Of a DNA stretch of 64,000 nucleotides, positions 4,680 to 61,646 are shown piece after piece (the first letter of the stretch is position 1; each line of letters opens with the position of its first letter). The position numbers were made by a program, and so were the translations under genes. The notes under the pieces are model-generated. The model was not told the origin of the DNA. It worked only from the letters and a program-made list of their open reading frames with translations, and did no database searches. Source of the DNA: an uncultured Caulobacter sp. (GTDB lineage Bacteria > Pseudomonadota > Alphaproteobacteria > Caulobacterales > Caulobacteraceae). The stretch is taken from positions 11,384 to 75,383 of the forward strand of contig CAZOHI010000003.1 of the NCBI GenBank assembly GCA_964579695.1. Reading direction: 5' to 3'.

Positions 4680-5485
4680 GGCGGCGCGCATCGGCCTTCA
4701 ACGTCGCCTCGATCGCGGCGGGGCTCGTCTTCCTATACCTGCCCATCGTCCTGCTGGTCGCCTGGTCGTTCAACGCCAGCAAGCTGGTGACGGTCTGGGG
4801 CGGCTTCTCGACGCGCTGGTACGTCTCCCTCTTCCAGAACGAACAGCTCATGGCCTCGCTGTGGGTCACCGTCCGGGTCGCGCTGATCAGCGCGACCGCG
4901 GGCGCCGTCCTGGGCACGCTCGCCGCCGTGGCCCTGGCCCGCGCGGGCAGATTCCGGGGCCGCACGGTCTTCTCCGGCATGGTCTACGCCCCCCTGGTCA
5001 TGCCCGAGGTGATCATGGGCCTGTCGCTGCTGCTGCTGTTCGTGGCCCTGCGCGTCGACCGGGGCCTGGCCACCGTCGCCCTGGCCCACACCACGGTGAC
5101 GCTGGCCTATGTCGCGGTCGTGGTCCACTCGCGGCTGGTCGCCTTCGACCGCTCGCTGGAGGAGGCGGCGCAGGACCTGGGCTCGCCGCCGCTGCGCACC
5201 TTCCTGACCGTGACCCTGCCGATCATCGCGCCTGCCGTGCTGGCGGGCTGGATGCTGGCCTTCACCCTCTCTCTCGACGACCTGGTGGTCGCGAGCTTCA
5301 CCAGCGGCCCGGGGGCCACCACCCTGCCGATGCGCATCTACAGCCAAGTCCGCCTCGGCGTGTCGCCGGAGATCAACGCCGTCTCCACCTTGCTGATCGG
5401 CGCCGTGGCCATCGGCGTGCTGGCCTGGGCGCTCGCGGCGAAGTGGCGAACGGTGGCTGGCGCGGCGCGAAAGCCTGCGGCATAA
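4676..5485 (+). CDS. potI: Polyamine ABC transporter permease
   Basis: FLYLPI, PLVMPEV, EEAAQDLG, TLSLDD; start at the ATGA overlap 4676. Confidence 0.92.
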   Translation: MRRRASAFNVASIAAGLVFLYLPIVLLVAWSFNASKLVTVWGGFSTRWYVSLFQNEQLMASLWVTVRVALISATAGAVLGTLAAVALARAGRFRGRTVFSGMVYAPLVMPEVIMGLSLLLLFVALRVDRGLATVALAHTTVTLAYVAVVVHSRLVAFDRSLEEAAQDLGSPPLRTFLTVTLPIIAPAVLAGWMLAFTLSLDDLVVASFTSGPGATTLPMRIYSQVRLGVSPEINAVSTLLIGAVAIGVLAWALAAKWRTVAGAARKPAA

Positions 5486-41299: not shown

Positions 41300-42931
41300 T
41301 CAGCCCGCGCGGAGGTCGGCTTGCCTGTTAGCAGCAGCAGCAGCAGCAGCCCCCGCCGAAAACAACGGCAGCTCGGAGTTGACCTCCTCGACGATCTCCG
41401 CAGCCTCCTCCACCGCAGGCACCACCGGTCCCGCCCAGTAACAGGACGGCACGCCGGCGCGGCGATCCGGGTCGTAAATCGTTTCCCGCCGGAGCACGCC
41501 TTCGTTGAGAAGACGCTTGGTGATCGTTCTCACCCGCTTGGACCAGTCGCCGTCCGGTTCGAGCTCCAGCGCGAACGCCAGCGGCCTGCCGATCCAGTCG
41601 TCGCGATGCCGGGCCTGAGGAGCTGCGCGCCAGCCGGCCGGGCCCATGGCATGGCAAAGGCGGGCCAATTGCCGGTCGGTCAGGAAACCCGCCACCCGCT
41701 CGGGAGGACTGGCCAGGATCCGGTCCAGCACATTCTCCCAAACCCCGATTCCCTCCCTCATCTCCGGAAGGTAGTCGTACATGTCGTAGTGCCTGGACGA
41801 GACATCGGACATCGCGTGGTTTTGGATGCGGTCCCGGGTTTCCTTTCGGACGCCGGCCGCTCCCGTGAGCGTCTTCCAGGTGCGCCTGAGATCTCGCACC
41901 TGGAACCTCTCCACCCCGGATTCCGCGATGTAGTTGCGAACGATCCGCGCGAGCGCGCTGGGCGCCATCGGGCGCGGGCGTTCCCGGCACGCGGCGAACA
42001 ACAGGCCGTCTGCGCTGGGCTCGAGCTCCTCAAGGAGCACCCTTACCTGCCGCGCCATCGGCACGGCGTGGGCCTTGCGGTTCTTCGTGGTGGACCAGCG
42101 GATGAGCCCGTTCTCGAGGTCGATGTGGTCGGTGGACAGCTGGAGGACCTCCATCGGACGCAGCCCCGTGGCCAGGGTCACCATGAGGGCCACATAGCCC
42201 AGATCCGGCCCCCTTTGCTGGTCGAGCCAGCTCCAGAAGGCGCTGACCTCCCCTTCCCTCAGAGCCCTCTCACGCGGGCGGGTCACATTGGGATTGTTCG
42301 GGATGCTGCTCACCGGATTGAACGCGATACCCCAGTCCTCGCCTGCCCCCTCGCCGAAGTAGCAACTTCCGGCCTTGATCGCGTAGTTGAAGGCGGCGTG
42401 CAGGATGTTCCTGGCGCGGTTTGCGGAAGGCGCCCTCCCGCGCCCATGGATGCCGCTGAGCACGGGGAGGATGTGCTCCTTGCGAACGGCCCCGGCCGCC
42501 AGGTTGGGACCGATCTTTTGCACGATGCCGCTGGGGCCAAGGAGCACCAGGCGGGCGATCTCGGCCGAGGGCCGCTCGCCCAGGTGCCGGATGTAGAGCT
42601 CCGCCAGGGCCTGGAGGGTCTTGCCTTCCTGCGACGCCTTGAGCGCTGTCCAGAGCGGATCTTCGCCTCGCCGGATCTTCGGCTGCAGCTCCTCTCTGAA
42701 GCGTTTGCGCGCGGCCGCGAGGGTGAGCGCGGGGTAGTCTCCCAGATGGCCGAGGTGGCGTTTGCCATCCCGGTGCCAGAGGACGGACCATTTGCTCACG
42801 ACCCTTTGCGGACGGCGCTCGAGGTCGAGGACGAGTCGTCCTCCGCCACGCTCGGACGGATCTGTCAGCCTCTTGCTGGCGCCTTCGGGGAGTTTGGCCA
42901 TCTCGGCCTTGATCGTTTTGTCCGTAAGCAT
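41300..42931 (-). CDS. Tyrosine integrase (Arm-DNA-bind_3 type) with a C-terminal extension
   Basis: N-terminus MLTDKTIK…YPALTLAAARKR; TGLRPMEV, DLRRT, IQNH…SSRHYDMYDY; about 140 extra aa after the catalytic Tyr region. Confidence 0.88.
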   Translation of the reverse strand: MLTDKTIKAEMAKLPEGASKRLTDPSERGGGRLVLDLERRPQRVVSKWSVLWHRDGKRHLGHLGDYPALTLAAARKRFREELQPKIRRGEDPLWTALKASQEGKTLQALAELYIRHLGERPSAEIARLVLLGPSGIVQKIGPNLAAGAVRKEHILPVLSGIHGRGRAPSANRARNILHAAFNYAIKAGSCYFGEGAGEDWGIAFNPVSSIPNNPNVTRPRERALREGEVSAFWSWLDQQRGPDLGYVALMVTLATGLRPMEVLQLSTDHIDLENGLIRWSTTKNRKAHAVPMARQVRVLLEELEPSADGLLFAACRERPRPMAPSALARIVRNYIAESGVERFQVRDLRRTWKTLTGAAGVRKETRDRIQNHAMSDVSSRHYDMYDYLPEMREGIGVWENVLDRILASPPERVAGFLTDRQLARLCHAMGPAGWRAAPQARHRDDWIGRPLAFALELEPDGDWSKRVRTITKRLLNEGVLRRETIYDPDRRAGVPSCYWAGPVVPAVEEAAEIVEEVNSELPLFSAGAAAAAAANRQADLRAG

Positions 42932-43607: not shown

Positions 43608-44078
43608 ATGGAAAAAGTGGGAAGAAATCGTCGGAGGTCGAACCGACTCACCTCCAACTCGATTCGGGAAATCATCGCGGCCGGCCGAAAGGGGCGGCAT
43701 TCGGACGGCGGCAATCTCTATCTCGCCGTTAGCCCCAACGGCTCCGCGCGGTGGGTCTTTCTCTACCGGTGGCGAGATGCGCCAGAGCAGCCGGGACCTG
43801 GCGCACCCAGAGAGATGGGCCTCGGCTCGTACGATACCGTGACCTTGAACGAGGCTCGCCGAGAGGCCGCCGCGCTGCGAAAGGGCTTACGCGAAGGCAT
43901 CTCTCCCCTGCCCCCGCGCGCTCCACGAAAGCCCCCCTCTTCCGTCGGAGCCCAGACAGACCAGAATGCACCCCCAGAACCGAGCCCCCCGCCCATCGCG
44001 TTAGCACGCTCAAAAAAAGCGCGGCGCCCCAGGCCGCAGCCCGCGGAGGATAGCGGGCAACTCACCCTTTTCGGATAG
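43608..44078 (+). CDS. Stand-alone Arm-DNA-binding (integrase N-terminal) domain protein, or truncated integrase
   Basis: GRHSDGGNLYLAV..NGSARWVFLYR…REMGLGSY..VTLNEAR; ends in a Pro-rich tail with no core-binding or catalytic domain. Confidence 0.75.
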   Translation: MEKVGRNRRRSNRLTSNSIREIIAAGRKGRHSDGGNLYLAVSPNGSARWVFLYRWRDAPEQPGPGAPREMGLGSYDTVTLNEARREAAALRKGLREGISPLPPRAPRKPPSSVGAQTDQNAPPEPSPPPIALARSKKARRPRPQPAEDSGQLTLFG

Positions 44079-44605
44079 GCCGTCAGCTGGGGGCCGGCGC
44101 CTAGCCCTTGCCTCCGAGCACCTAGGCGTGGGCGTCGTACTGCTCCAATAACGCGGCACCCGCCGAGCCGACGGATCAAGCGCTGGCGCCTCTGCCCTGC
44201 CCGTGGGTTGTCATCCAGCTCGGATCTGAGCGCGGGGTGATGGTTAAGCCGTGCGGTGCGGTGCGGCGCAGCCAGCCCGCCACGGTGACGAAGGCCGGGA
44301 AAACTCCAGCCTCAGGCGGTCCAGCCATGGGGAGCGGATCATGATGAAACGGACTCTCACTCAAATCGCGGGATCAGGAAGGGGGCAGGTCAGGGGATAA
44401 GCCGGGTTCGGCGCGGCCCGGTGCGGGCGGCGCCGTCCGGGACGAAGTCCATCTAGCCGCACCTGCAAGGCGGGGCGGCGTGGATCAGTCGGTCGTCAGG
44501 AGGGACGCGATGGGTCGGTTTGGGGCGTGAAGGGGCGGGAGGATTTGTCTCGCTAAGAACGCAGAGATATGAGGCGCAGCCATTTCTGAAAGCAAATTTT
44601 GGAAT

Positions 44606-45043
44606 CTACGCCTGAGGGAGCACCACAAGGGCATCGAGAAATTCCTTGAGCGACGAAGCAAGGGGGATAATTAAGCGTTCAGGGTCATTATAGTATTCCG
44701 TTTGGAGAAATTGCACTTCTCCAAAAGTATCGGACGAAACGCTGTAAACAAAATAATCGCCATTCGGATCATCGGCGAATGGTATCAAGTCAGGTGAAAG
44801 TATTCCATCTTCCAGGAGCGTTGCATAAGACGCTTCCAGGCCATCTTTCGGACCGACGATCGGAAGAATGTACTGGACCGTATAGAACTCACCATCCTTC
44901 TCAAAGGAGTCAGGCTGGATCGCTCCCCCATTGGCATCAAGATAAAATTTCCGCAAATCTTGCGGAATGGTTAATCCGAGGCGCTGCTCAAGCTGAGCAA
45001 TATCGTGCTCCGTCAATCTGGCCTTCGACCTTCTAATATCCAT
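44606..45043 (-). CDS. SMI1/KNR4-family immunity protein
   Basis: LTEHDIAQLEQRLGLTIPQDLRKFYLDANGG, LIPFADDPNGDYF; 9 nt downstream of the toxin gene; AT-richer DNA. Confidence 0.9.
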   Translation of the reverse strand: MDIRRSKARLTEHDIAQLEQRLGLTIPQDLRKFYLDANGGAIQPDSFEKDGEFYTVQYILPIVGPKDGLEASYATLLEDGILSPDLIPFADDPNGDYFVYSVSSDTFGEVQFLQTEYYNDPERLIIPLASSLKEFLDALVVLPQA

Positions 45044-45052
45044 AGCACTACC

Positions 45053-48000
45053 TCACCTCCTATAACGTGTCCGAGTGAACGCCTCCCACTGAGACACTGC
45101 ACCCGAATGGCCCGACGCCGCTTCGTGCGCACGACGCTGGACAAGCTCCATGGTTGCCGTCCCAGTGCGAGGGTCAAAGTCATCAACATGGTGCCAGCGG
45201 AAATTGTCGCTGATCTCAGGCGTCACCTCAATACCCGCCGCACGGAATGCCGCCGCGTTGTCAGAACGACGGCTGCCCGTTAAGGAGATTTGAACAACGC
45301 TGCTTTGTCCAAGGCCAGCGGCATAGAGATATGGCGTACCAGCAAAGGTGGGGCCTCCATTTGGAGTCGTCCCTACTCCGGGGAAGCCTCTGTCCGCAGC
45401 TCGCTCGGCGGCGCCCAAGCGGCGGAAGCCAATATTACCCCCATTACCTCCCAATCCGTTGATCTGGAGACGGAAGCCGGTGAAAATCTCCAGCCCTCGG
45501 ATCACACTGCCCCCAAGGGCGGCTCCCACCACAAGGGATCCGACGGCGAGGACGCCCGTAGCGCCCCGCCCGGAATCCGCATCTGTGTGGCCCGTGCTGC
45601 TGAACCGATCCTGAGCTGCTTCGGTCAGGCGCCCTATGGCTGGCTCAGTGATAGGCTCAAGCACCTTGCCGATCGCGTACTGCGCCGGCCCGGACGCTAC
45701 GCTGACCGCCTCCAGGCTCCAACGCAGGAGCGGCCGCTCACCAATCTTTTCGGCGACCCAGGTAGCGGTATCGCCCGCGCCCATCATAAACGCGTCGACT
45801 TCGTTCGACAGAAGCGCCGGTTCGACGCCGGTTGAAGCCCGGGAGTTCCTGATGTTCTGATCGAGTACATCGACTGCGGCGTAGGCATCGTCAAACGACA
45901 GTCCGCCTATCTGTTGGAACGCATTTTGAGACGTATAGAGGGCGTACTTGATAGTTCCAGGCTTAGGAGCCGTAACGATAATCCCACCATCCTCCCCCAC
46001 CTCGTCGGGCGGGGAAGGAATGAAGGTTTCGTACCTTTCCACGTCCAAGTATTTACCAAGGGTTTGCTGAGCCTCCTCACTCTTGAGAACGCGCTGCAAC
46101 GCCATCCCTCGCTCGCCATTGTTGGCGTCGAACCGCTTTAGGATGTCGGCCATATCCGCAAGGTCTTCCCGGCTTCGATTTTCATAGGCTGGAAGCTTGG
46201 CGAGCGCATCTATGGTTTGGTTGCGTTGTCTCCGTTCCGATAGGCCCGACACCCCCCTGGCGATGGCGTTCCCGACCGTCGCCGCGATGACGTCCGGCAG
46301 GACGGCCATCATGTTGTCGCCGAAGTCCGAGCCCTCGATCAGGCTGCGCGAGGCCGCTCCTGCCACCCCGCCCGCCAGGTTCGAAATGCCGTCGATGACC
46401 AGCGACTCCAACTGGCTGGGATTGGAGCCGAACATGCCCCCTATCGCACCGCCCACCGCTGATCCGACGCCGCTGACCACCCCGGCCACCGCCACGCTCG
46501 TCCAGTCGAACCGGTCCTGCATCCCAGTAGCCACGCCGATGCCCTGGGTGATGGCGTTGCCGGCCATGCCCCGCATCGCCGCCATGCCCCAGCTGCCCCC
46601 GGCCAGCGGGCCGACGTTGGCCAGCCCCGCCGTGACCCCCGAGCCGATCGCGCCAAGCGCCACCGCGTTCCAGCTGAACTTGTCCTGGATGCCCATCGCC
46701 ATGGCCGCGCCCTGGCTGACGATGCTCCCCACCGCGCCCGCGATCGCCCCGCCCACAAAGGAGCTTACCGCGATCGTTCCCACCGACGCCGCCGTTGCAC
46801 CCGCCGCGACCGTCGCGCCGCCCACGCCGGCGAAGGTCACTCCGGAGAAGCCCAAGGCGCCCGCGCTCACCGAGGCCGTGCCCGCCCCGCCGATCAGGTT
46901 GGCCACGCCCGCGATGGCGTGGGGCGCCACCAGCGCCACCACCACGATGGCGATGATCGCCACGAAGATCTGGGCCACGCCGCAGCCGGCTTCCGCCTTC
47001 GGAGGGGGCGGCATTTTAGGCCTGACGGGGCTGGTGTTGCCGATGGCCCGGTTGGGGTCGTAGGGCCTGAAGGTGTCGGCGTTGTTGTGGATCGGCTCCA
47101 CGTTCGACGGGATCGTCAGCGTCTGGCCCGCCGCCAGCTCGCTGTCGCTCGTCATGCCGTTGGCCTCGGCCAGCGCCCACCACAGCGCCGCGTCCCCCCA
47201 CAGCTGGCTCGCGATCGACTGGAAGGTGTCGCCCTCGCGCACCACGTACCGGCCGCCCGTCTCGGCCTTGGTCGTCGGGCTGTCGTATATCCCGCTGTAC
47301 GCCTGGTCGAAGTCCGCCGTCATGATGGCCGCGCCGCTATAGCGCAGGTCCGCAACCTTCTGGCCATTGAAGTAGAGATAGACGTCCTTGATGGCGTTAT
47401 TCGTCTGCGTCCGACTCAGAACCTGCCCCTGCACGTCAGTCACGTAGTTGATCGTGAAGGGCGACGCGTCGTTGACGTACACCGACGACAGGTGGCCGCT
47501 GGTGTCGTAGCTCATGTTCGACGTGCTTAGAGGGTTCGAGCTGCTCCCCGCATCCGGGTCCAGCGTCTCGATGTCCTTCAATCCCCCGTCCCACCACTCG
47601 TAGGTGTACCAGGTGTCCGAAGTAGGCGCGTTGTACTTCAGCGTACCGTTCGACTGCTCGTAGCGCTTCGTCGTGCGCACGTGCGTAGCAAGCCCGCCCA
47701 GGTTCTGGCCGTTGTAGACCCCCGGGCTCGTCTGCATATTGTAATCGTAGTACTGCTGCGTGACGATGTACTCATTCCCCGTGTTGTATGTACGAGAGTA
47801 CGAGTACGTAACTTCCCCCTTGTTGTTGTACGTATACGAGTAATTGTTGTTGTTACCCATCGGGTTCGCGACCGTCAGAACGCGGCCCAGCGCATCGCGC
47901 GTGTACAAGAGCTTGGTAGAGAGCGTCGTCGGTGGGGGGTCGGTTGAGAAGAAGGTGGCGGAGTTCACCTGCATGACATAGCCGTCGGCGCTGTAGATGT

Positions 48001-51000
48001 ACTCGTCCTTGACGTCGATTCCCCAAGGAACCTGCACGAGGTTGAAGATCGCCATCACCCGCTGGCCGGCCGCGTCGTAGAGGTGCTCGGTGCCCAGTTC
48101 CCCGCGTACGATCGTGGTGCCAGACGCCCCCGCAGTTCCCGACAAGGTTCCCTGGGTAGTCACGAACCGATTCATGGAGTCGTAGGCGTACCAGTAGTCC
48201 TGACTCTCATAGAGAGCGGGTGATGAGGCCGTCATCCGGCGGATGTTGCCCTGGGCGTCATACTCCCAAGCCACGTTGATTGTGCCGGATGTGCCCGACG
48301 CATCGTCAACGAAGCTCAGCATACGGTTCAGCGCGTCATAGGTGACGACGGCGTTCTGGTGCACCGTCGTGGCGCCCTCGATAAGTTGCTCCGTGAACCA
48401 GTCGTAGTTCCAGAAGGTTGAGGCGTAGTTTTCCTTTAGGCGGTTGCCCCCCACATCGTAAACGTACTGGGCCGTGACATTATATCCGTAGTATCCCGCG
48501 TACCCTGTAGCATCGACGTTTCCTGCCATCAGGCCGGTATTGAAGTAGGAATAGGTGATGTTTTGGTCGGCCGTGCTCGTCTGAGACACAAGGCGTCCAG
48601 CCTTGTCGAAAGTAAGGGTATAGACGTGGCCGCCGTAGTCTGTCCTCGCGGCCATCCGCCCGAAATAGTCGGTCTTCTCCGTCGAGGTCTTATTGGCCGG
48701 AATGGTCGTCAGCTTCGTCCAGCCGCCGAAGGCCCCAAGCCCCCCCGTGGCGATCGCCGGATCCCACGTATAGCTGTAGGTCGTGACGTTGCCGCCGAAG
48801 TCCTGCATCCTGGTGACTCGGCCCTTGTAGTCGTAGTCCGTCGCCTCCTTCACCAACGATCCGAGCTGGCTGTTCCAGTGCGTCAGACGCCGGCCTAGGC
48901 CGTCGTAGGTGTAATTCTCTGTGAGCTGCACCCCGCCCGAACGCTGCGGCCGCACTATGGTCAGCAAACGGCCGCCCTTGTCGTAGGCGCGGGTCTCGAC
49001 CGCTCCGAGGCCGTTGGTAAACTTGCGCGCATTTCCGAGGAAGTCGTAGCCGATCTGCTCGATGCTGGTATCGGCATGGAACTTTGCCGTGACCTTGGCC
49101 TCCTCGCCGCCATGGCCCGAGCCGGCCAGCAGGGTCCGCCGCTCGACGTTGCCGTTGGCGTCCTCCGTGGCGATCAGGCGTCCGGAGACGTCGTAGTAGT
49201 AGGCCTCTTCCGGTCGTGTCAGGTAGGCCCCGCCGTCCTCCCCCGTCACGCTCACCTCCGGGCTGGTCTTCAGCACCAGCCGGCCCATGGTGTTGTAGGC
49301 AAAGTCGGTCGTGTGGCTGCGAGCGTCGGTCTCGGAACTTACCTCTCCGAAGGCGTTGTAGGTGCGCCCCTTGACGATGTCGGCGGTAGCGTATGTCGAC
49401 GCTCCGGTCTTCGCCAACTGCCGCTGCGGTTCGCGTGTGGAGGTCGCCTGCCCGCGCTTGTCGTAGGTGGTGATGGTGGCGACGACGCCGTCGACGGCGA
49501 CGGCGCCCACCGCGTTGGCGCCGTTGTTGGTGAGCAGCGCGAGCGCGGTGGCGGCGGTGTGGGTCGCCAAGTCCGTGCCCACCGAGGCGATCTCGAGCGT
49601 GATCCGACCGGTCGCATCGTGGAGGAGTATCCGCGTCGAGCCAGTGTCGGCGTTTGTGCGCCACAGGCGCCCGCCAGCGTCGTAATCGAAAGTCTCCTGA
49701 TAGACGGCGGCGACGGTGGCGTCGCCGGTGACCCCGCGCCCGGTCAACTGGCCGAAGCTGTCGTAGCGGTAGTGGGTGGTGTCGCCGAAGGTCCAGGTCG
49801 AGCCGCTGAGGACGGCCGTACTCTCCAGCTTCGCGCGGCCCAGGGCGTCGTATCGCCAGGCGCGAGCCTCGGTGACGGTGGTCCCGTCAGACCTGGCGCG
49901 GGTGTAGCTTTCCTTCACCACGCGCCCGGTGACATCGTAGGCGTAGCTGCGTGTGAAGCCCGTGGCGTCGGTCATCGAGGCCATGCGCCCGCCGGCGCCG
50001 TAGGTGAAGGTGGTCAGGCGGTCGTCGGCGGAGGTTCCCGAGGCCTTGCGCTCGGTCATGCGGGAAAGGTTGTTTAGGCCGTCATACTCGTAGACGGTCC
50101 GGTGCTGGACGTTGGTGCCAAGGTGGTCCGTGAAGGCCGACTTGGTGGCCGTGGACTGCCGGCCGCCCACGTCGTAGGCGTAGTCGATGTAGTCGCCGTT
50201 GGCCTCGGTCTTGCGGGTCACTTGGCCCAGGCCGTTGTAGGTGTAGGTGATGGTGGCGTTGGCCGCGCCGGCCTGCAGCACGCCGATGCTTGTCACCTCG
50301 TGGGCGTTGACGGCCAGGCGGGTCTCGGTGAGGCGCCGGCCGTTTCGGTCATAGGCGAAGGTGGTGGTCCGATCGGCGGCGTTCCCGGCCACGCCGGCGC
50401 GCAGGGTGACGGGGTTGCTGGCGATCGTCACCGTCCCGGTCAGCTTGGTGGCGAACCGCTCTTCCTTGAGCACGTTGCCCTCGGCGTCGCGCTCATAGAC
50501 GGTGAGGTAGTTATCCTGATCGACCTGGGCGCTCTGGCGGCCAAGCCTGTCGTAGAACAGGAAGGTGCTGTTGCCACGCTCGTCGATCCGCTCGATGACG
50601 TTGCCGGCGACGTCGTACTTCGCCTGGGTCGTAATGTCCCCCGTCGAGGTCGCGTAGGCCGAGCCGTACTCGCCAGTCGTCAGGCCGACCACCTTGGTCA
50701 GGACCAGTCGGTTGTTGCGGTCGTACTCGAAGAGCGTCTCGCGATAGTTGGAGGCGTTGACCGGGACCGGGGCCGTTCCACCCGCTGTCGGCGTCGTGGT
50801 CAGGAAGTCGCCATAGATCCGCGCCTTAGTGGCGTTGCCGTTGGCGTCGTAGGTCCAGACCTTCAGCGAATTCATCGCATCGACCTCGGCCACCTTGCGG
50901 TTCAGGTCGTCGTACCAAGCAAAGGTGATGGCGTCGGCCGCGTCGGTGGTTTGGATGAGGTTGCCGCGCTTGTCGTAGGCATAGGTCTCGGTCGGGGTGA

Positions 51001-57000: not shown

Positions 57001-59332
57001 TGATGGTGTCGGTACCGTTTGCCGTACGGGTGTAGGCGAGCCCCTTCCCGCCTGACACTATGGTGGCCACGCCCTTAGTCGCCCCCGACACCGCCGTGAT
57101 CGTCAGCTGGTCTGCGTCGGCGTCCGTGTCATTCACCCGTGGGTCGAAGATCAGCGTCTTGCCGATACCAGTCAGGGTGTAGGAGTCGTTGTTGCCGACC
57201 GGCGCCTGGTTCGAAGCAGCGATCGTGTCCCGCACGGTGACAGTCGCCGTCGCCGTATTCCCCTGCCCGTCCGAGATCGTGTAGGTGAAGCTATCGCCCC
57301 CCGCACCGGTGCGCGTGTAGACGATCTTGCCGCCCGAGATCGTCGCCGTGCCCTTTGTCGGCGTCGACACCGCCGTGATCGTCAGGGAGTCCCGGTCGAA
57401 GTCGACGTCGTTCAGCCGGGGATCGAACGTCAGCGCCTGGCCGACCTCCGTCACCACGATGGTGTCTGCCATCGCCACAGGCGCCACGTTCGCGCCGCCG
57501 ACGGAATCCGACACCGTGATCGTGCCCGTGGTGGTCAGCCCCTGCGCGTCGGTGATCGTGTAGGTGATCGTGTCGATCCCCACACTGGTCCGAGCGTACT
57601 GGATTCCAGTTCCGCTACCGACAATCGTCGCCGTTCCCTTCGTCGCCCCCGTCACCGCCGTGATGGTCAGCTTGCCGTTCTCCGGGTCGCTGTCGTTGGC
57701 TCGCGGGTCGAAGGTGCGCGAAGCGCCCACCCCAACCACCAGGCTGTCGTTCGCCGCCGTCGGCGCCTGCGTCGTCAGCGCCGAGCTCTCGGCCACCGTC
57801 ACCGTGGCCGTGACCGTATTCCCCTGCCCGTCCGAGATCGTGTAGGTGAAGCTGTCGGCCCCCGCGCTCGTGCGCGTATAGGTGATCTTCGTCCCGCCAC
57901 CGGCGATGACGGCCGTACCCTTCGTCGGCGTCGATACCGCCGTAATCGTCAGCGGGTCGCCTTCAAAATCGCTGTCGTTGGTGCGCGGGTCGAAGGTGAT
58001 CGAGTCCCCCACCGCCGTCACCACGATGGTGTCCCCGCCCGCGACCGGGGCCAGGTTGCCGCCCGTACCGGGCATTGGTGCCGAGTATTTCGTCTCGGTC
58101 AGCAACTGGTTGTTGGCGCCGTAGGTGTAGACGACCGTATTGCCCAGCGCATCGCGCGAACTCGTGAGGTTGCCGTTCCCGTCATAGGCATAGGTGACGA
58201 CCGCGCCCGACGCGTCTGTGACCGTCTGCACGTCGCCATTGGTGTTGTAGGCATATTGCAGCACCTGGGCCGCCGCCCCCGAATGCGCCGGCGGCAGCTC
58301 CATCTTCGTCAGCTGGCCCGCGGCGTCGTAGGTCATCTTCGTGACCTGACCCGCCGGGTCGGTGATCGTCGTGACCCGCGTCGCGATGTTGTAGCTGAGG
58401 CTGGTCGTGCGCGTGACGCCCGCCGCCGCCGTCTGAACCAGCGACGTCACGCGGTAGTCCGACCCCACCAGAGTGTAGCCGACCGTCAGGCTCGAGCCAT
58501 CGGTCTGCGTGATCGACGCCACTCGCCGGCTCGCCCCGTCATAGGTATAGGTGGTGACATAGGTGTTGCCGTCGGACACCGCGTTGTCCGTCGGGCTCTT
58601 GTCGATCGTGACCGTCACCAGCCGGTCCGACGTGTCGTAGCCGTACCGCACCCTTGTCAGCGTGCTGAACGACCCGCCCTGGGTGGTCTGATATTTGGTC
58701 TCCACCTGCGTCAGCAGGGTCCCGGCGTAGACGAGGTCGGTGTAGTTGCCGTCCTGCGTCGTCACCCGCGACACTAGGCCCGAACCGTTGTAGGCGAACG
58801 TCAGCTTGTTGCCGTCCGCATCGGCGCTGGTGAGAATCCGCCCGCCGTTGTTGTTGTCGTAGCGCTCGGTGACCCGGCTGTCGCCGTCCGTCCAGGTCCA
58901 GACATTGCTCGCGTAGGTCAGGGTGTCGTACGCTCCCGCACCCTCCATAGAGACATAGGCGCTGCGCCCCGCATCCCAGGTGTAGACCGTCTCCGCTCCG
59001 TCCCAATCCGTCCGGGTCACCGTACTGCCGGCCGTATTGATCGTCCCCGTCAGCCCCGCGACCTTGCGCGACACGCCGGCCCGCCAGTTGTCGCCATTGT
59101 CGTCGTTCAGCGCCCCCAGGCTGTTGTACGTCCGCGCGATCGCATTGTCCGGCCCAAGACCAATCAGCATCTCGTCAACGTTGGAAACCACCAGGTTGCC
59201 CGTCGCCGCGTTGACGTAGACGTTCTCCTGCGCCCGGCCCAATCCCGCGTGCCCCAGCTGCCCCCGGGAGCCAAGCACGAACGCCGAACTGCGCTCCAGC
59301 CCAAGGCCCGCGCCTGCAACGATCGCAACCAT
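45053..59332 (-). CDS. Giant YD/Rhs-repeat polymorphic toxin with Ig-like repeats, LysM and C-terminal WHH (HNH/EndoVII) nuclease
   Basis: 4759 aa; dozens of Y.YD..GR repeats; 9 Ig-like repeats; LysM (RYVVREGDTFQSIA…ANG…GQTLTIP); hydrophobic/Gly-rich segment; tip FRWHHVDD…MELV.R.AH….GH.GA. Confidence 0.92.
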   Translation of the reverse strand: MVAIVAGAGLGLERSSAFVLGSRGQLGHAGLGRAQENVYVNAATGNLVVSNVDEMLIGLGPDNAIARTYNSLGALNDDNGDNWRAGVSRKVAGLTGTINTAGSTVTRTDWDGAETVYTWDAGRSAYVSMEGAGAYDTLTYASNVWTWTDGDSRVTERYDNNNGGRILTSADADGNKLTFAYNGSGLVSRVTTQDGNYTDLVYAGTLLTQVETKYQTTQGGSFSTLTRVRYGYDTSDRLVTVTIDKSPTDNAVSDGNTYVTTYTYDGASRRVASITQTDGSSLTVGYTLVGSDYRVTSLVQTAAAGVTRTTSLSYNIATRVTTITDPAGQVTKMTYDAAGQLTKMELPPAHSGAAAQVLQYAYNTNGDVQTVTDASGAVVTYAYDGNGNLTSSRDALGNTVVYTYGANNQLLTETKYSAPMPGTGGNLAPVAGGDTIVVTAVGDSITFDPRTNDSDFEGDPLTITAVSTPTKGTAVIAGGGTKITYTRTSAGADSFTYTISDGQGNTVTATVTVAESSALTTQAPTAANDSLVVGVGASRTFDPRANDSDPENGKLTITAVTGATKGTATIVGSGTGIQYARTSVGIDTITYTITDAQGLTTTGTITVSDSVGGANVAPVAMADTIVVTEVGQALTFDPRLNDVDFDRDSLTITAVSTPTKGTATISGGKIVYTRTGAGGDSFTYTISDGQGNTATATVTVRDTIAASNQAPVGNNDSYTLTGIGKTLIFDPRVNDTDADADQLTITAVSGATKGVATIVSGGKGLAYTRTANGTDTITYTLSDGHGNTTTATVEIDDSLGANGDPFTQVDFVDVVGGVPKIFDPRVNDYDPDGDPLIITSVNGAFYGTATIVGGGTAIEYTGPGYYEYLWYTVSDGRGGESYGDIVVMSGFGDQPPVANADDVIVGSSLTFDPRANDGDVDLDAITITAVSTPTKGTATIVGGGTAILYTRTSAGTDSFTYTITAGGQTATATITIGMPPANQAPTPMADSIVVRGIGDALTFDPLVNDRDVDVDTLTITAVSTPGKGTATLSAGKITYTRTSAGSDSFTYTVSDGNGHSQTVTVTVADVLPGTNGAPTAAVDQVTVGVGSSVSFDPRANDSDPDTDGLTITAASGSTKGTVSIIGGGTGITYTRSSAGTDSFTYTISDGRGGTNTATVTVLDPPASNQAPNAVADTIVVNAVGDAITFDPRVNDADFDRDTLTVTAVSTPGKGTATIVGGKIVYTRTSAGADSFTYTISDGNGHTDTVTVTVATISSGGAAVSTPFTTRYVYDAENHLTYVVSAEGHVTRYVYDTQGRQTAAIDYAANAYNISGLAPGASLSDSTMNTWASGISNKSTTTRTDTTYDFRGNVATVTSWEKTLSSGAADTSGASSQITYVYDQAGRLLSRQVGGSGPSETFLYDGMGRLIASDFNTVTTTIAFDDPATTTTITLSNGLQQVSTYNKAGELISYAEAASGMATVTTQYSYDAMGRLRYVSDPTGVGSHYLYDHVGRKVAEIGVDRSLVEYRYDANDRLVATIAYKNLLSAGQLNSLLSGGQPTAVQLSSVRPSSNAADRWEWRIYDAAGRLTQTIDAGGAVRSYAYDGASRLVSTTAYATVVAVAGYKTTLPTAPVSVTANAADDRTIRNFYDADGRLIGTLDGEGYLTQVVYDEAGRKTKTIGYATVTAQVDRAGGSFATLLAGVTATTNPKDIHNWFVYDGRDFLRATVNGEGDIVRYRYTALGYLDQEVRGQKLNPTTLIATPPTLASVASAPASGSLETTTWTRNLYGQALTEVRTLASGNETITYTYDAQRRLVSSAVSGTTADPRTQTQRYDVRGRLVGSLSGEGSAALAALGGSPTQSQIDNVYATWGVTYVYDAADRLVARIDPDGTGSSGRKTRYYYNTDGALTHTINALGEVVEQRYDVFGQRSDTIAYAARIASGTLATLNGGVVDTALTNAVTAITNAAADSKVTLGYNVTGTVSQSVDSLGYATTYAYNAFGEEVSRTKPFTSSISVTTASVYDRRGLLLSSTVDATGLNLISSAVYDAFGRAVQVTDPNGAVRSTAYDRAGRTIASTDALGQTTSYTYDGRGNTLTVTNRNGKTTSFTYNAFSRQVVMTTAEGISTTTNTSAHGQTLSIVDGAGRTTTYGYDKDGALKTVSDAAGTTTNAYDKAGRIVLVTNALGTKTAFTYDAASRVLTQVVDEGAGRLNLTTTYGYDAKGQRVQVTDAGGTVTEITFDRKGQKTAVVIDPGGLALRTEYTYDRSGRMLTATEGVGTAAVRATSYVYDRADRLTQTRVDPTGLNLSTSYTYDKNGNVAAKTDAASAKTRYVYDAENRLTWTVDAEGAVTRLTYDGEGRVTKTYAYATKVLAATLSSWPLAVTEAQVLAAVSTTAPDRASRVVYDGDGRATFEVDAEGYVTRYVYNGAGQVTEKVRYAAAYTVSDGATVPSLTTLIGSPAGAATTTFAYDNAGRLTDVTDPEGVVTRLVMDAIGQVTETKVAYNTTDEAVTRRVYDRAGRVTSETRGYGTAEASTTSYTYDALGRVLTTTDGRGFVTTRTYDAAGRLLTVSVPLDVGVNAVTTNQYDAVGNLVKVTDPRSNVGHFYYDKAGRLTLQVDPEGYATQTTYSVHGEPLTIKRYYTATTGAAVGAPPTLVTNAKDATTTIARDKLGRVTRVTDAEGAYENYTLDAFGDRISVRNKLGGITTNTFDKRGLLLTETLPINSVLAGGTVQATSVINKYAYDARGNRIQSIEAFGLAEQRTTAYAYDKLDRLVSKSGDAVQVTADNLSTVTTVTPTETYAYDKRGNLIQTTDAADAITFAWYDDLNRKVAEVDAMNSLKVWTYDANGNATKARIYGDFLTTTPTAGGTAPVPVNASNYRETLFEYDRNNRLVLTKVVGLTTGEYGSAYATSTGDITTQAKYDVAGNVIERIDERGNSTFLFYDRLGRQSAQVDQDNYLTVYERDAEGNVLKEERFATKLTGTVTIASNPVTLRAGVAGNAADRTTTFAYDRNGRRLTETRLAVNAHEVTSIGVLQAGAANATITYTYNGLGQVTRKTEANGDYIDYAYDVGGRQSTATKSAFTDHLGTNVQHRTVYEYDGLNNLSRMTERKASGTSADDRLTTFTYGAGGRMASMTDATGFTRSYAYDVTGRVVKESYTRARSDGTTVTEARAWRYDALGRAKLESTAVLSGSTWTFGDTTHYRYDSFGQLTGRGVTGDATVAAVYQETFDYDAGGRLWRTNADTGSTRILLHDATGRITLEIASVGTDLATHTAATALALLTNNGANAVGAVAVDGVVATITTYDKRGQATSTREPQRQLAKTGASTYATADIVKGRTYNAFGEVSSETDARSHTTDFAYNTMGRLVLKTSPEVSVTGEDGGAYLTRPEEAYYYDVSGRLIATEDANGNVERRTLLAGSGHGGEEAKVTAKFHADTSIEQIGYDFLGNARKFTNGLGAVETRAYDKGGRLLTIVRPQRSGGVQLTENYTYDGLGRRLTHWNSQLGSLVKEATDYDYKGRVTRMQDFGGNVTTYSYTWDPAIATGGLGAFGGWTKLTTIPANKTSTEKTDYFGRMAARTDYGGHVYTLTFDKAGRLVSQTSTADQNITYSYFNTGLMAGNVDATGYAGYYGYNVTAQYVYDVGGNRLKENYASTFWNYDWFTEQLIEGATTVHQNAVVTYDALNRMLSFVDDASGTSGTINVAWEYDAQGNIRRMTASSPALYESQDYWYAYDSMNRFVTTQGTLSGTAGASGTTIVRGELGTEHLYDAAGQRVMAIFNLVQVPWGIDVKDEYIYSADGYVMQVNSATFFSTDPPPTTLSTKLLYTRDALGRVLTVANPMGNNNNYSYTYNNKGEVTYSYSRTYNTGNEYIVTQQYYDYNMQTSPGVYNGQNLGGLATHVRTTKRYEQSNGTLKYNAPTSDTWYTYEWWDGGLKDIETLDPDAGSSSNPLSTSNMSYDTSGHLSSVYVNDASPFTINYVTDVQGQVLSRTQTNNAIKDVYLYFNGQKVADLRYSGAAIMTADFDQAYSGIYDSPTTKAETGGRYVVREGDTFQSIASQLWGDAALWWALAEANGMTSDSELAAGQTLTIPSNVEPIHNNADTFRPYDPNRAIGNTSPVRPKMPPPPKAEAGCGVAQIFVAIIAIVVVALVAPHAIAGVANLIGGAGTASVSAGALGFSGVTFAGVGGATVAAGATAASVGTIAVSSFVGGAIAGAVGSIVSQGAAMAMGIQDKFSWNAVALGAIGSGVTAGLANVGPLAGGSWGMAAMRGMAGNAITQGIGVATGMQDRFDWTSVAVAGVVSGVGSAVGGAIGGMFGSNPSQLESLVIDGISNLAGGVAGAASRSLIEGSDFGDNMMAVLPDVIAATVGNAIARGVSGLSERRQRNQTIDALAKLPAYENRSREDLADMADILKRFDANNGERGMALQRVLKSEEAQQTLGKYLDVERYETFIPSPPDEVGEDGGIIVTAPKPGTIKYALYTSQNAFQQIGGLSFDDAYAAVDVLDQNIRNSRASTGVEPALLSNEVDAFMMGAGDTATWVAEKIGERPLLRWSLEAVSVASGPAQYAIGKVLEPITEPAIGRLTEAAQDRFSSTGHTDADSGRGATGVLAVGSLVVGAALGGSVIRGLEIFTGFRLQINGLGGNGGNIGFRRLGAAERAADRGFPGVGTTPNGGPTFAGTPYLYAAGLGQSSVVQISLTGSRRSDNAAAFRAAGIEVTPEISDNFRWHHVDDFDPRTGTATMELVQRRAHEAASGHSGAVSQWEAFTRTRYRR
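55565..58057 (-). repeat. Nine tandem ~90-95 aa Ig-like/cadherin-like repeats inside the toxin gene
   Basis: Consensus N.AP.A..D….G….FDPR.ND.D.D.D.LTITAVS.P.KGTATI..G.I.YTRT..G.DSFTYTISDG.G….TVTV, counted nine times. Confidence 0.9.
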
Positions 59333-59524
59333 CTGAAGTCCCCCGGAAACAGTCCTGCGGGCACCGCCTCCGGTCCCCCCGTTTCAATCCTTCATCCGGA
59401 GAAGACGCCGGCCGTTTAGCTATTTTTTCGCGCTCAGCTCGACAAACAGGCCTGACTCGCCTTGCGGAACGCAAGAATTTCAGGTGAACTCCACCCTCAG
59501 TAGCTTAAGCGCCAGAGGGGAGGC

Positions 59525-59797
59525 GTGACATTGGGGGCGGATCAAGCGCTGGAGCTGATGAATCAGCTCCTCTGGAACAGCATGCTCGTGGCTGCGCCCG
59601 TACTCATCGCCGCCCTGGCGGTGGGACTGACGATCAGCGTGCTGCAAGTGGCGACTCAGCTGCAGGAGATGACCCTCAGCTATGTGCCCAAGATGCTGGC
59701 GGCGGCGCTCGTGCTTATGGCGCTTGGCCCCTGGATGATCCATCGGATCACCCGCTTCGCCGTCTACACTATCAAGATGATCCCGGCGCTGGGCTGA
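59525..59797 (+). CDS. fliQ: FliQ/SctS-family export apparatus protein
   Basis: LAVGLTISVLQVATQLQEMTLSYVPK; GGAGG RBS before the GTG. Confidence 0.92.
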   Translation: MTLGADQALELMNQLLWNSMLVAAPVLIAALAVGLTISVLQVATQLQEMTLSYVPKMLAAALVLMALGPWMIHRITRFAVYTIKMIPALG

Positions 59798-59799
59798 AC

Positions 59800-60558
59800 A
59801 TGACGCAGGGATTGGTCGGCTGGGCCTTCTCCAGCCTTTTGCTTAGCCTGAGGATCGCGCCCGTCTTCGCCATGGCGCCGCCCTTCACGCTCACGCGGAC
59901 GCCAGCGATGTTCCGCACCCTTTTCGCGCTGGGCGTCGCGACGTGTCTCGTCTCGGCAAATCCGGCGACGACGACCATCACCGACTACAGCCTCGGAGGG
60001 CTGGTCGGCACGGCCATGCGCGAACTGATGCTGGGCGCCATCTTTGCCATGGCCTTCCAGGTCACCTTCGGCGCCCTCTACATGGCCGGGCGGACCATCG
60101 ACATCCAGTCCGGTTATGGGCTGGCGCTGTTGATCGATCCTACCACCCATAGCCAGACACCCCTGGTCGGCACGCTTTTCGCCCTGGCGGCGGGCGCGGT
60201 GTTCTTCGCCATGGACGGTCATGCCGAACTGCTTCGCATCCTGGCCGCCTCGCTCGATGCTATTCCCCTCGGCGGAGGCGCCGTCCCCACCAGCCTGAGC
60301 CCGCTGACCGCCTTCATGGGCGCGGTCTTCCTGACCGCCTTCGGCGTGGCCGGCGGAGCGATCCTTAGCCTGTTCCTGGCCGACATCGCTATCGCCATGC
60401 TCTCACGCACTGCGCCCCAGATGAACGTCCTGCTGCTGGGCTTTCAGGTGAAGGCCATACTGCTGCTGCTCGTGCTGCCGTTGACCTTCGGCGTTGCTGG
60501 CGCGCTCCTCGCACGGCTCGCCCGCATGACCCTCGAAGCCATCCCGAGGCTGCTATGA
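59800..60558 (+). CDS. fliR: FliR/SctT-family export apparatus protein
   Basis: LRIAPVF, RELMLG, AGRTIDIQSGY, LSRTAPQMNVLLLGFQVK. Confidence 0.92.
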   Translation: MTQGLVGWAFSSLLLSLRIAPVFAMAPPFTLTRTPAMFRTLFALGVATCLVSANPATTTITDYSLGGLVGTAMRELMLGAIFAMAFQVTFGALYMAGRTIDIQSGYGLALLIDPTTHSQTPLVGTLFALAAGAVFFAMDGHAELLRILAASLDAIPLGGGAVPTSLSPLTAFMGAVFLTAFGVAGGAILSLFLADIAIAMLSRTAPQMNVLLLGFQVKAILLLLVLPLTFGVAGALLARLARMTLEAIPRLL

Positions 60559-61646
60559 GCGGGGAAGACGCCGAGCAGAACAAGTCCGAGCAGGCCTCGC
60601 CCTACAAACTGCAGAAGGCGCGGGAAAAGGGCGCCGTGGCGCGCGGCACGGACCTGGGCTTCCTCACGGCGACCTCCGCCTTCATCGGCTATGCCTGGAT
60701 CGCCGGGCCGGCGGCCAGGACGCGGATCGCCGAGGCTGCGGAACGCGCCATCGTGGCCGCCGGCAACGTCGTGGCCGGGCCCAACGAGCTGATGGCCGTA
60801 ACGGGCGCCGTCCTGGCCTCCGCCGTTCGGCCGCTGGCCTTCATGGCTGCCACGGTCTTCGTGGTGGTCCTTGTCTTCGAAATGGCGCAGCTGCGCGGCT
60901 TCGTCTTCTCGACCGAGCCGCTCAAGATCCAGTTCAACCGGCTGAACCCCGCCCAGAACCTCAAGCGCCTGTTCTCGCTGCGGATTCTCCTGGAGACCGG
61001 CAAGAACATCCTAAAGATGGCGACCTACCTCACATTGGTCTGGTGGGTGATCCGCCACGCCCATCAGACGAACACGCCTGCCATCGATGACGCCCGCGAC
61101 CTTGTCCGCGTCATGGCCCAGACGGCGCTGAAGCTGATGGTGGTCTTTTCCGGGGCGGCGGTGGTCTTCGCCGCCATGGACCAGTTCATCACGCGCCGCG
61201 ACTTCTCCAAGAAGATGCGCATGAGCCGGCGCGAGGTGCGCCGCGAGCACCGCGACCGCGAAGGCGAGCCGCGGATGAAGCAGAAGCGCAAGCAACTGCA
61301 CGCCGAGTTCGTCAAGATGAGCCAAAGCCTGCGCGGGGTGCGCGGCGCCGACATCCTGGTGACCAACCCCACGCACTATGCGGTCGCCCTGCGGTATGAT
61401 GGCGCGGCGATGACGGCGCCGAAAGTGGTCTCGCTGGGAGCGGACCACTTCGCCCTGCGCCTGAAGCGCCTAGCCTTCCTCTACGGCGTGACCATCGTCC
61501 AGAACCGGGAGCTCGCGAGGGCCCTGTACGCCCGTTGCCAGCTCAACAGCGAAATTCCGGAAGCTCTCTACCAACCCGTGGCCGACCTATACACGGCCAT
61601 GCGCGGCGGGAACGGAAAGACGCGGAACGCGACCGCCCATGCTTAG
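60555..61646 (+). CDS. flhB: FlhB/SctU-family substrate-specificity switch
   Basis: KSEQASPYKLQKAREKG, RMSRREVRREHRDREGEP and the autocleavage motif NPTH. Confidence 0.93.
   Translation: MSGEDAEQNKSEQASPYKLQKAREKGAVARGTDLGFLTATSAFIGYAWIAGPAARTRIAEAAERAIVAAGNVVAGPNELMAVTGAVLASAVRPLAFMAATVFVVVLVFEMAQLRGFVFSTEPLKIQFNRLNPAQNLKRLFSLRILLETGKNILKMATYLTLVWWVIRHAHQTNTPAIDDARDLVRVMAQTALKLMVVFSGAAVVFAAMDQFITRRDFSKKMRMSRREVRREHRDREGEPRMKQKRKQLHAEFVKMSQSLRGVRGADILVTNPTHYAVALRYDGAAMTAPKVVSLGADHFALRLKRLAFLYGVTIVQNRELARALYARCQLNSEIPEALYQPVADLYTAMRGGNGKTRNATAHA

Follow-up and report, generated by a model that had tools for sequence, protein, structure and literature searches.

A 64-kb stretch of DNA (the window) from the 99%-complete genome of an uncultured Caulobacter sp. 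contains on its reverse (−) strand, between positions 45053 and 59332, a single unbroken open reading frame (ORF; ORF list and translation) of 4,759 amino acids (aa) that encodes a giant YD/Rhs-repeat polymorphic toxin, as also indicated by Pfam. What is new is that a polymorphic toxin of the Rhs type possesses, ahead of its toxic tail, a conserved and hitherto unmodelled pre-toxin module composed of a LysM domain, a transmembrane (TM) helix and a set of further helices, and has no autoprotease. The LysM and the hydrophobic parts of this module are real and, to judge from their conservation across at least 1,368 clusters of related sequences and from the sharp junction that closes the module, under selection. 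Unless otherwise indicated, the coordinates given below are those of the window on its reverse strand and the residue numbers are those of the 4,759-aa toxin.

The reading that we favor, with a probability of about 0.55, is that this region acts as an entry module which would tether the toxin in the periplasm, insert into a membrane and allow the passage of the tail, with a release of the toxin different from that of Rhs proteins and an export of the flagellar type. According to this mechanism, the toxin would reach a neighboring Gram-negative cell, where LysM would hold the tail on the periplasmic peptidoglycan and the TM helix, together with the amphipathic helical bundle, would enter a membrane, most likely the inner membrane of the target; the middle domain and the nuclease that follow the module would then pass into the target cytoplasm, in a layout similar to the entry-domain-plus-toxin arrangement of CdiA-CT (the C-terminal part of CdiA) and of colicins. 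The nuclease would be released by a non-Rhs route, which in a few relatives may be provided by a HINT domain located after the module, and the cut suffered by the present toxin, if any, would probably fall in the linker region after the module. The SUKH-1 protein of the adjoining gene would neutralize the WHH nuclease, and export from the producer would probably occur through the adjoining sigma-28-controlled, filament-less flagellar-type machine and not through a type VI secretion system (T6SS).

The relatives of the toxin were collected by a word-indexed search having aa 3900–4400 as the query, which yielded 86 further full-length giant proteins of 2,778–6,674 aa, all with a LysM region located 450–840 aa ahead of the C-terminus; all 87 full-length members align across aa 3940–4358. 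At most, these relatives are annotated as “LysM peptidoglycan-binding domain-containing” or “YD repeat-containing” proteins, and those bearing a name come from Sphingomonas, Allosphingosinicella, Brevundimonas, Erythrobacter, Burkholderia, Eleftheria, Paraherbaspirillum and Duganella. An exhaustive HMMER scan of 50%-identity clusters returned at least 1,368 cluster representatives matching the post-LysM part (aa 4079–4360) with E ≤ 1e-10, and a scan of species-representative genomes located at least 498 module stretches, in Sphingomonadales, Caulobacterales/Hyphomonadaceae, Rhizomicrobium and Burkholderiales. An even sampling of the class to which the source genome belongs found the module in 1 of 401 genomes, namely the source genome itself, so that the family is patchy but large. 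These giant YD-repeat toxins, which occur in Alpha- and Betaproteobacteria of soil and water and of which a single genome often has several copies, apparently constitute a large, undescribed family. Short matches that seemed to place the module in proteins without YD repeats begin within conserved segments and represent truncated gene calls rather than new architectures. A fragmentary second paralogue of the toxin, its module being 67% identical, is found on a small contig of the same genome (C118, 3,579 bp); the assembly was probably broken by the repeated YD sequence, the genome thus containing at least two such genes. Sphingomonas deserti has two giant YD-LysM genes in tandem (L002, 1–8941 and 10001–23824) and a third one ~25 kb away.

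The module comprises the conserved residues ~4002–4360 (~350 aa) and coincides with the end of the alignment-wide conserved block (aa ~3940–4358). Pfam covers LysM alone within it, in 21 of 22 aligned modules; no glycine-zipper Pfam family was detected at E ≤ 0.1 across these 22 modules, one of which gave a weak DUF637 match. The LysM domain (aa 4029–4075; 47108–47248) is identified by Pfam PF01476, with 34–38 bits vs the gathering cut-off of 20.9, by an AlphaFold2 model displaying the E-H-H-E fold with a pLDDT (predicted local distance difference test) of ~90, and by PDB profile matches to Kbp and other LysM proteins with E down to 3.8e-11; it is a predicted peptidoglycan-binding domain. LysM is followed by the motif TF(K/R)PYDPxxAxG(D/N)xxP (aa 4087–4102; 47027–47074), defined by its conservation in 87 relatives, of which the fuller consensus is N.A.TF(K/R)PYDP..A.G(D/N)..PT.P and whose representative in the present protein is HNNADTFRPYDPNRAIGNTSP (aa 4082–4102; 47027–47089). 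The counts over the 87 sequences are 81 for T, 70 for F, 83 for Y, 76 for P and 87 for both G4098 and P4102, whereas the Asp position of RPYDP is occupied by D in 69, by N in 14 and by S in 2 cases. The possibility that this motif is the last YD strand, packed against the shell, and LysM a loop inserted ahead of it is not supported by AlphaFold2, which in the presence of the shell context predicts no strand here and assigns a pLDDT of 60–70. The ensuing Pro/Lys-rich linker VRPKMPPPPKAEAG (aa 4103–4116; 46985–47026), evident from the sequence, includes PKMPPPPK (aa 4105–4112; 46997–47020) and has a family consensus PT.PKPP..., its length differing among the relatives.

The hydrophobic part begins with a Cys-Gly pair and a strongly hydrophobic TM helix (aa 4117–4141; 46910–46984), recognized by conservation and by Kyte–Doolittle hydropathy, which reaches a 19-residue window maximum of 2.93; this helix, which includes IFVAIIAIVVVALVAP (aa 4122–4137; 46922–46969), is the single strong TM helix of the module. 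Immediately ahead of it, Cys is conserved in 83 and Gly in 81 of the 87 relatives; C4117 (46982–46984) is a possible lipidation or disulfide site, its context not being that of a lipobox. The helix is followed by a charge-free, Gly/Ala-rich stretch (aa 4142–4194; 46751–46909), delimited by alignment and composition, which is variable in length among the relatives (alignment occupancy down to 0.38). Both segments are modelled by AlphaFold2 with low confidence, the pLDDT of the Gly/Ala stretch being <50. In the present protein, D, E, K and R are absent over ~100 residues (aa 4115–4216), and G, A, S, V and T account for 66% of aa 4113–4360.

Next come two helical units of the type GSI.SQ..G.ATG(I/L)QDKFSW..VA..A..GGV, which form an internal repeat (aa 4195–4297; 46442–46750) and whose most conserved residues are Q4216 (80/87), F4219 (80/87) and W4221 (76/87) in the first unit and Q4272 (84/87), F4275 (84/87) and W4277 (75/87) in the second. 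The alignment then defines boundary helices and the junction motif FGDN..A.LPDVI(G/A).T(I/V)GN (aa 4298–4360; 46253–46441), which in its fuller form, AA.RS...G..FGDN..A.LPDVIG.TIGN, constitutes the end of the constant region; beyond aa 4360 the column identity falls from ~0.58 to ~0.14. The junction motif is present in 152 of 227 collected sequences and the Asn of FGDN in 67 of the 87 relatives; the LysM, Q/F/W and FGDN positions are invariant in the 22-sequence module alignment (A1), as are G337 and N339 of its own numbering. An AlphaFold2 model of the module based on this alignment contains five helices across aa 4221–4359, with pLDDT values of 75–85. Foldseek and PDB-sequence searches with the helical module match its LysM part alone, no Pfam or PDB relative of the remainder being found. 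The DUF637 match mentioned above, to a CdiA-type haemagglutinin region, occurs in one of the 22 modules with E = 1.9e-4 and may hint at a distant tie between the helical module and the pretoxin region of CdiA.

All the C-terminal features listed in an earlier note on this DNA were recovered within the ORF where that note had placed them (string positions, Pfam); what escaped its description of the tail of a single protein, in which the individual features are real, is that they belong to a family-wide constant region and that the family is linked to flagellar-type genes. The AlphaFold check that the note had suggested for the tail, run here on parts, gave the confident LysM fold and the well-predicted helices described above and offered no structured context for the YDP motif. 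As to the proposal that the tail brings along its own delivery modules, the LysM and hydrophobic parts stand as real and conserved elements whose features would fit a role in peptidoglycan binding and at the membrane, while the associated idea of a release at RPYDP is weak, for the reasons set out below.

The body that precedes the module is a genuine YD shell. The protein begins with a leader, followed by a DUF6531-like start (a weak match in Pfam/NCBIfam), YD repeats, nine Big_9/cadherin-like domains (aa ~426–1161; Big_9 E = 5.9e-110, Pfam), again YD repeats over ~2,850 aa and, finally, the tail. RHS_repeat is matched by 23 stretches (E = 1.8e-164, Pfam) and TIGR01643 with E = 1.7e-127, and by these measures the toxin is a Rhs/YD-repeat shell protein. 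The last part of the β-shell (aa 3600–4007; 47312–48535), defined by AlphaFold2 and Foldseek, terminates in the family motif Y.F.G...G..GNNG ... ADFD..Y..I, to which ADFDQAYSGIYD (aa 4006–4017; 47282–47317) belongs. In an AlphaFold2 model of aa 3600–4116 obtained with a 17-sequence alignment (mean pLDDT 76), the β-strands are unbroken to aa 4007, the last shell strand (aa 4002–4007) being followed by a disordered linker and then by LysM; a Foldseek search with the shell sheet retrieves RhsP, the Rhs protein of S. bongori, RhsA, Tse5, Tse15, TcB/TcC and teneurins with E values from 1e-12 to 1e-7. Taken together, the strands and the fold matches indicate that the shell is genuine, that it ends at ADFD and that no Rhs-like plug or protease follows.

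Indeed, the canonical self-cleavage apparatus of Rhs proteins, namely the TIGR03696 core with its PxxxxDPxGL aspartyl autoprotease site, is absent. TIGR03696 (Rhs_assc_core) has no match in the toxin at E ≤ 0.01, in the shell ends of 17 relatives at E ≤ 0.1 or in the whole genome at E ≤ 1, the positive controls from E. coli and B. subtilis being detected, and a string search finds neither DPxG nor PxxxxDP within the last 2,000 residues of the toxin. The earlier note had not seen PxxxxDPxG and had regarded the C-terminus as non-canonical, a view against which the discovery of a canonical aspartyl autoprotease site would have spoken; such a site was looked for by both the string and the TIGR03696 searches and was not found, and on both counts, the missing motif and the missing aspartyl-protease core, the note was right.

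A shell with no autoprotease core might be one that is never opened; the toxin would then be a teneurin-like scaffold in which no cleavage occurs, the tail is permanently outside and the shell with its nine cadherin-like domains serves as an adhesin or spacer. The Foldseek matches, which include teneurin shells, the listing of TEN_YD-shell (PF25023) in the precomputed Pfam annotation of nearly all relatives and the disordered linker between the last strand and LysM agree with such a scaffold as well. A DNase, however, must reach the DNA of the target, so that either a separation of the tail or a translocation of all of it would still be required, and the HINT domain of some relatives shows that release is under selection; we therefore hold the never-opened shell to be improbable.

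The model put forward in the earlier note, according to which the ~740-aa tail resides inside an enlarged YD cocoon and is released by self-cleavage at RPYDP (Asp-Pro), is judged equally improbable. The YD sequence is ~3 times that of the solved Rhs cocoons, making a larger cavity conceivable, and the motif is strongly conserved, with G4098 and P4102 present in 87/87 sequences. On the other hand, the Asp is replaced by N or S in 16 of the 87 relatives and is thus unlikely to be catalytic; LysM is upstream of the motif and would remain with the shell instead of traveling with the cargo; LysM is, furthermore, folded, unlike the unfolded cargo of known cocoons; the relatives bearing HINT cut further downstream; and AlphaFold2 gives the motif no structured context. 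As a release site, RPYDP is therefore weak.

The HINT domains of some relatives indicate where release may occur. PT-HINT is present in 3 of the 227 collected sequences, in two of which it follows directly the LPDVIG junction; in the S. deserti relative it is located between the middle domain and a barnase (CFVAGT...VWVHN). In these relatives HINT lies downstream of the module, which implies that the module is kept on the shell and that release concerns the tail alone, and this placement favors an arrangement in which the module would sit in a membrane, with the tail freed on its far side. PT-HINT (PF07591) is absent from the present toxin (Pfam scans, BLAST).

The main rival of the entry-module reading places the helix in the producer, where it would be lodged in the inner membrane or in the export gate, with LysM on the producer's own peptidoglycan; the tail, kept in check by SUKH-1, would be retained and its export completed only upon contact with a target, as in CdiA. 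We consider such a producer-side anchor or secretion arrest rather unlikely, even if several properties of the module suit it. A hydropathy of 2.93 is typical of a stable membrane anchor, the location of LysM ~45 residues before the helix has the geometry of a periplasmic tether to peptidoglycan, a near-invariant Cys stands at the start of the helix, and the one weak DUF637 match among 22 modules points in the direction of CdiA. What speaks against it is that, were the tail kept in the cytoplasm, self-cleavage by the HINT domains that follow the module in relatives would release the toxin within the producer itself, and that the orphan cassettes described below carry the entire module along with every new tail.

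A number of points must also be set against the entry-module reading itself. The hydrophobicity of the TM helix is that of a resident anchor of the inner membrane; it suits the producer-side alternative equally well, and it makes passage through a type III channel difficult to picture. In the toxin itself neither a recognizable self-cleaving element nor a cleavage site was found. The peptidoglycan binding, membrane insertion and translocation attributed to the module are read from domain type and composition. GxxxG occurs 12 times vs 9.6 ± 2.4 in shuffled sequences (p = 0.21) and is therefore not enriched over composition, which makes the “Gly-zipper” label of the earlier note mostly an effect of composition: the hydrophobic Gly/Ala stretch is real and the longer small-xxx-small-xxx-small runs are mildly enriched (38 vs 27 ± 4.5, p ~ 0.01), but neither GxxxG periodicity nor the Pfam models PF13488 and PF05433 identify a glycine-zipper membrane domain. 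Finally, in 17 of the 49 module-bearing genomes in which linkage to flagellar-type genes was considered (see below), linkage cannot be scored, either because the contig bearing the module is not that bearing FlhA or because an FlhA gene was not detected.

The composition of the module also raises the question of whether the hydrophobic region could be a toxin in its own right, namely a pore former such as the Gly-rich C-terminus of Tse5 from Pseudomonas is reported to be, with the nuclease as a second payload. The region is Gly/Ala-rich, uncharged and helical, and Tse5 is among both the sequence and the fold matches of the shell; it is, however, the tail with which the immunity genes change, the module being constant; a second immunity gene conserved downstream was not seen, and the searches by sequence and by fold linked the module to no solved pore former. 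The chances of this explanation are very slight.

Beyond the junction, the protein has the organization of a polymorphic toxin, i.e., a constant body, a variable tip and, adjacent and downstream, an immunity gene, with orphan cassettes in the relatives. The first part of the tail is a variable middle domain of ~250 aa (aa 4361–4610; 45503–46252) defined by BLASTP, which over aa ~4366–4608 is 37% identical to the relative P0013 and 29% identical to P0035, whose C-terminal toxins differ; this domain gave no Pfam or PDB match, and no solved relative of the variable tail was retrieved. A second hydrophobic stretch, VLAVGSLVVGAALGGSVIRGL (aa ~4594–4614; 45491–45553), is seen at the end of the middle domain, before the Gly-rich linker (aa 4611–4638) that separates it from the nuclease. 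The latter (aa ~4639–4759; 45056–45418) is a WHH domain of the HNH/EndoVII superfamily and a predicted DNase toxin; its Pfam PF14414 match spans aa 4709–4751 with 38–41 bits vs a cut-off of 25.1 (E = 1e-9 to 1.7e-10), the WHH residues are aa 4713–4715 (45188–45196) and RWHH aa 4712–4715. The WHH domain is 48% identical to the C-terminus of a third relative, P0081, whose middle domain is different. Since the middle domain and WHH are shared with different relatives, the tail is bipartite, its parts being shuffled independently as in CdiA-CT and colicins.

The immunity gene (44606–45043) encodes a 145-aa SUKH-1 (SMI1/KNR4) protein identified by Pfam PF09346 (E = 8.5e-21; SUKH_6 E = 8.6e-16) and starts 10 nt past the stop codon of the toxin. 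The guanine plus cytosine (GC) fraction over 44500–45500, comprising the immunity gene and the nuclease end, is 0.49–0.59 vs ~0.66 in the surroundings and is lowest (0.49) at the SUKH-1 gene, which fits a horizontally exchanged cassette. Just downstream of the immunity gene are a tyrosine-integrase gene (41300–42931, −) and an integrase arm-binding fragment (43608–44078, +), remnants suggesting that a mobile element was once active at the 3′ end of this locus. Other toxin Pfam families borne by the relatives include GH-E, LHH, SHH, REase-7, pesticin and a cell-wall hydrolase; the S. deserti relative has a barnase tip followed by a Barstar gene and a stray HINT fragment. In some relatives, the full-length gene is followed by tandem short ORFs of 680–1,056 aa, each consisting of a complete module (profile positions 2–346) and a new tail, and tandem complete copies of the module are found 3–6 kb apart in four genomes (G404, G401, G427 and G445). 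As these orphan cassettes carry the complete module, it is the LysM-TM-helix block that provides the homology by which toxins are switched; downstream of the toxin in the window, no such cassette was found.

On its other side, the toxin gene is divergent from fliQ-fliR-flhB-flhA (59525–63666 on the forward strand, +; Pfam Bac_export_3/1/2 and FHIPEP), from which it is separated by 192 bp. These genes open a cluster of flagellar-type export, rod, ring and hook genes that extends for ~20 kb past the window (including contig C3:75001–95000) and continues with FlgG, an FlgA-like protein, FlgH, FlgI, FlgC, FliE, FliF, an FliH-like protein, FliI, FlgD, FlgE, FliN, FliO and FliP, in addition to a FliA/WhiG-like sigma factor and two proteins with tetratricopeptide repeats (TPR). 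FliF is short (412 aa) and is directly followed by the FliH-like gene. Flagellin, FlgK/L and FliG were not found in the ~20 kb of the cluster, MotAB not having been specifically searched for; the genome's flagellins are on other contigs, and a second FlhA, 39% identical to that of the cluster, is encoded elsewhere. As to the two TPR proteins, the candidacy of the 188-aa one as a class II type III secretion system (T3SS) chaperone was rejected, its matches being only to generic TPR and, below threshold, to SctY, while the 380-aa protein displays sub-threshold matches to SctY and to the SycD/LcrH chaperone models that are a hint only.

The association between toxin and cluster recurs in the family. 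With linkage defined as a module copy and an FlhA gene on one contig and no more than 30 kb apart, 30 of 49 carrier genomes are linked, the rough chance estimate being ~10%; in only two more cases do the two share a contig at a greater distance. Among the FlhA paralogues, the linked one nearly always has the lower score and, in three other genomes, is 60–61% identical to that of the window, the linked clusters of these three genomes having the same gene set and being orthologous to the window cluster. In two genomes, G427 (a complete 3.87-Mb chromosome) and G405 (contig C36), the toxin gene is ~1 kb upstream of fliQRflhBA on the same strand, possibly forming one operon with it, and no flagellin was found in either; in Brevundimonas faecalis the toxin gene comes after the sigma/TPR end of the cluster. 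More generally, no flagellin was found in five genomes, one of them a complete chromosome, whose sole FlhA is of the linked type.

Regulatory evidence points in the same direction. A sigma-28 (FliA)-like promoter motif, CTAAAC-N15-CCGAT, was found by motif search at 59394–59419, 62–87 nt upstream of the start codon of the toxin, and is the sole match to CTAAAC-N14-16-CBGAW in the 64-kb window, where 0.16 are expected; none occurs in the next 20 kb and hence none before the flagellar-type operons located there. In the relatives, such a motif is found upstream of 14 of 28 genes, at −78 to −104 (once at −234). In contrast to these signs of linkage and co-regulation with a flagellar-type T3SS, which comprise linked genes, a putative sigma-28-like motif and a FliA-like sigma factor, those of a T6SS-delivered Rhs effector are missing, since Pfam detects neither VgrG nor PAAR in the toxin and, of the ten carriers checked for the T6SS sheath marker TssC (PF05943), this genome and 7 of the 9 others lack it. 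The linkage and the motif thus suggest that the genes of the family sit in filament-less flagellum-type secretion gene clusters, and an export of the toxin by a flagellum-type machine is plausible.

A candidate for the secretion signal is the conserved N-terminal leader (aa 1–38; 59219–59332), for which the N-terminal alignment of the 87 family members gives the consensus MVAIV.G.GLGLE.SS..VLGSRGQLG.A.LGRAGE. (columns with ≥60% identity); it is not a Sec signal peptide, and a Pfam scan of the toxin revealed no PAAR and no signal-related match. From these premises a broader proposal can be formulated, which we advance tentatively, as a possibility distinctly less likely than not: the giant YD-LysM toxins may be carried as cargo by a type III machine that derives from the flagellum, has no flagellin and probably no motor, and consists of export gate, rod, L/P rings and hook together with a FliA-like sigma factor of its own and TPR proteins. 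The toxin gene would replace flagellin as the late gene driven by sigma-28, the 38-aa leader would be the export signal and the LysM-TM-helical module a built-in translocator carrying a swappable toxin across the envelope of the target. If true, this would represent a new route of interbacterial delivery and would explain the use of Rhs-type toxins by Gram-negative bacteria lacking a T6SS.

The definition of the module has several consequences. The family keeps the shell, drops the protease and adds a predicted peptidoglycan-binding/membrane-helix block modelled by no domain library; it sits in flagellum-type clusters, in some genomes without flagellin and usually without a T6SS (as judged from TssC among the carriers checked). 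The module provides a sequence signature by which such toxins can be found and annotated and exact junctions at which parts can be swapped or deleted, and it bears on how giant Rhs proteins leave Gram-negative cells devoid of T6SS and on how toxins cross the envelope of their targets. The literature searched yielded no account of a LysM/TM module located after the shell, nor of Rhs proteins being linked to a flagellar T3SS: LysM is one of several adhesion domains in the toxin architectures of Zhang et al. 2012 (PMC3482391), the LysM anchor of a 2025 WapA paper is N-terminal and not post-shell, and the Rhs protein of PMC11762177 is a canonical PAAR/T6SS effector.

How, then, does this toxin compare with known systems? 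Rhs toxins are understood as self-cleaving cocoons that are fired by the T6SS or assembled into Tc complexes. With the canonical members (RhsA, 7Q97; RhsP, 8H8B; Tse5, 8CP6; Tse15, TcB-TcC and WapA) the present toxin shares the YD shell with its DUF6531-type start, the polymorphic C-terminal toxin with an adjacent immunity gene and, in its relatives, the orphan cassettes. It differs from them in that the Rhs-associated core, PxxxxDPxGL, PAAR and VgrG are missing, as is TssC from the genome, in that the YD sequence is about 3–4 times longer and interrupted by nine Ig/cadherin-like domains, and in that 350 aa of constant LysM-TM-helical module separate the shell from the toxin. The toxin is kin to the Rhs polymorphic toxins and works like them but, failing with respect to both the C-terminal core and the T6SS, is best kept apart from the canonical Rhs effectors.

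The neighboring cluster also has its parallels. Buchnera keeps hook-basal bodies without a filament. The flagellin-less flagellar T3SS (FT3SS) of Lysobacter enzymogenes exported FlgD and heterologous cargo and was proposed to be a protein exporter, in a paper that makes no mention of Rhs, YD or LysM (PMC7688988). As in these two systems, export gate, rod, rings and hook are kept here without flagellin; unlike that of Lysobacter, the present cluster is syntenic with a giant toxin gene bearing a sigma-28-like motif. As to the module, T3SS translocators (YopB/IpaB) and prePAAR/TM T6SS effectors (Tse6) likewise have hydrophobic helices of their own that are thought to insert in the target membrane, but no sequence or fold similarity to either class was detected.

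The closest functional analogies are offered by the pretoxin/VENN junction of CdiA, with its bipartite CT, and by uncleaved shells of the teneurin type. Like CdiA, the toxin has a conserved pre-toxin region that closes with a short motif (VENN in CdiA, FGDN..LPDVIG here) and, like CdiA-CT and colicins, an entry or middle domain and a toxin that are independently shuffled, as well as orphan cassettes; the FHA-2 part of CdiA is reported (Ruhe et al. 2018) to insert into the membrane of the target cell. Unlike in CdiA, the carrier is a YD shell and not a β-helical filament, and a TpsB partner is missing; CdiA, in turn, has neither LysM nor a true TM helix, the sole sequence link between the two being the weak DUF637 match. 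With teneurins (PF25023), on the other hand, the toxin has in common a YD shell without release by a Rhs-core protease and a C-terminal domain of the HNH/EndoVII superfamily, Tox-GHH in their case and WHH in this one. Teneurins, however, are type II membrane proteins of eukaryotes whose TM segment is N-terminal, whereas here the TM helix comes after the shell, and LysM and the immunity gene mark the protein as a bacterial antibacterial toxin.

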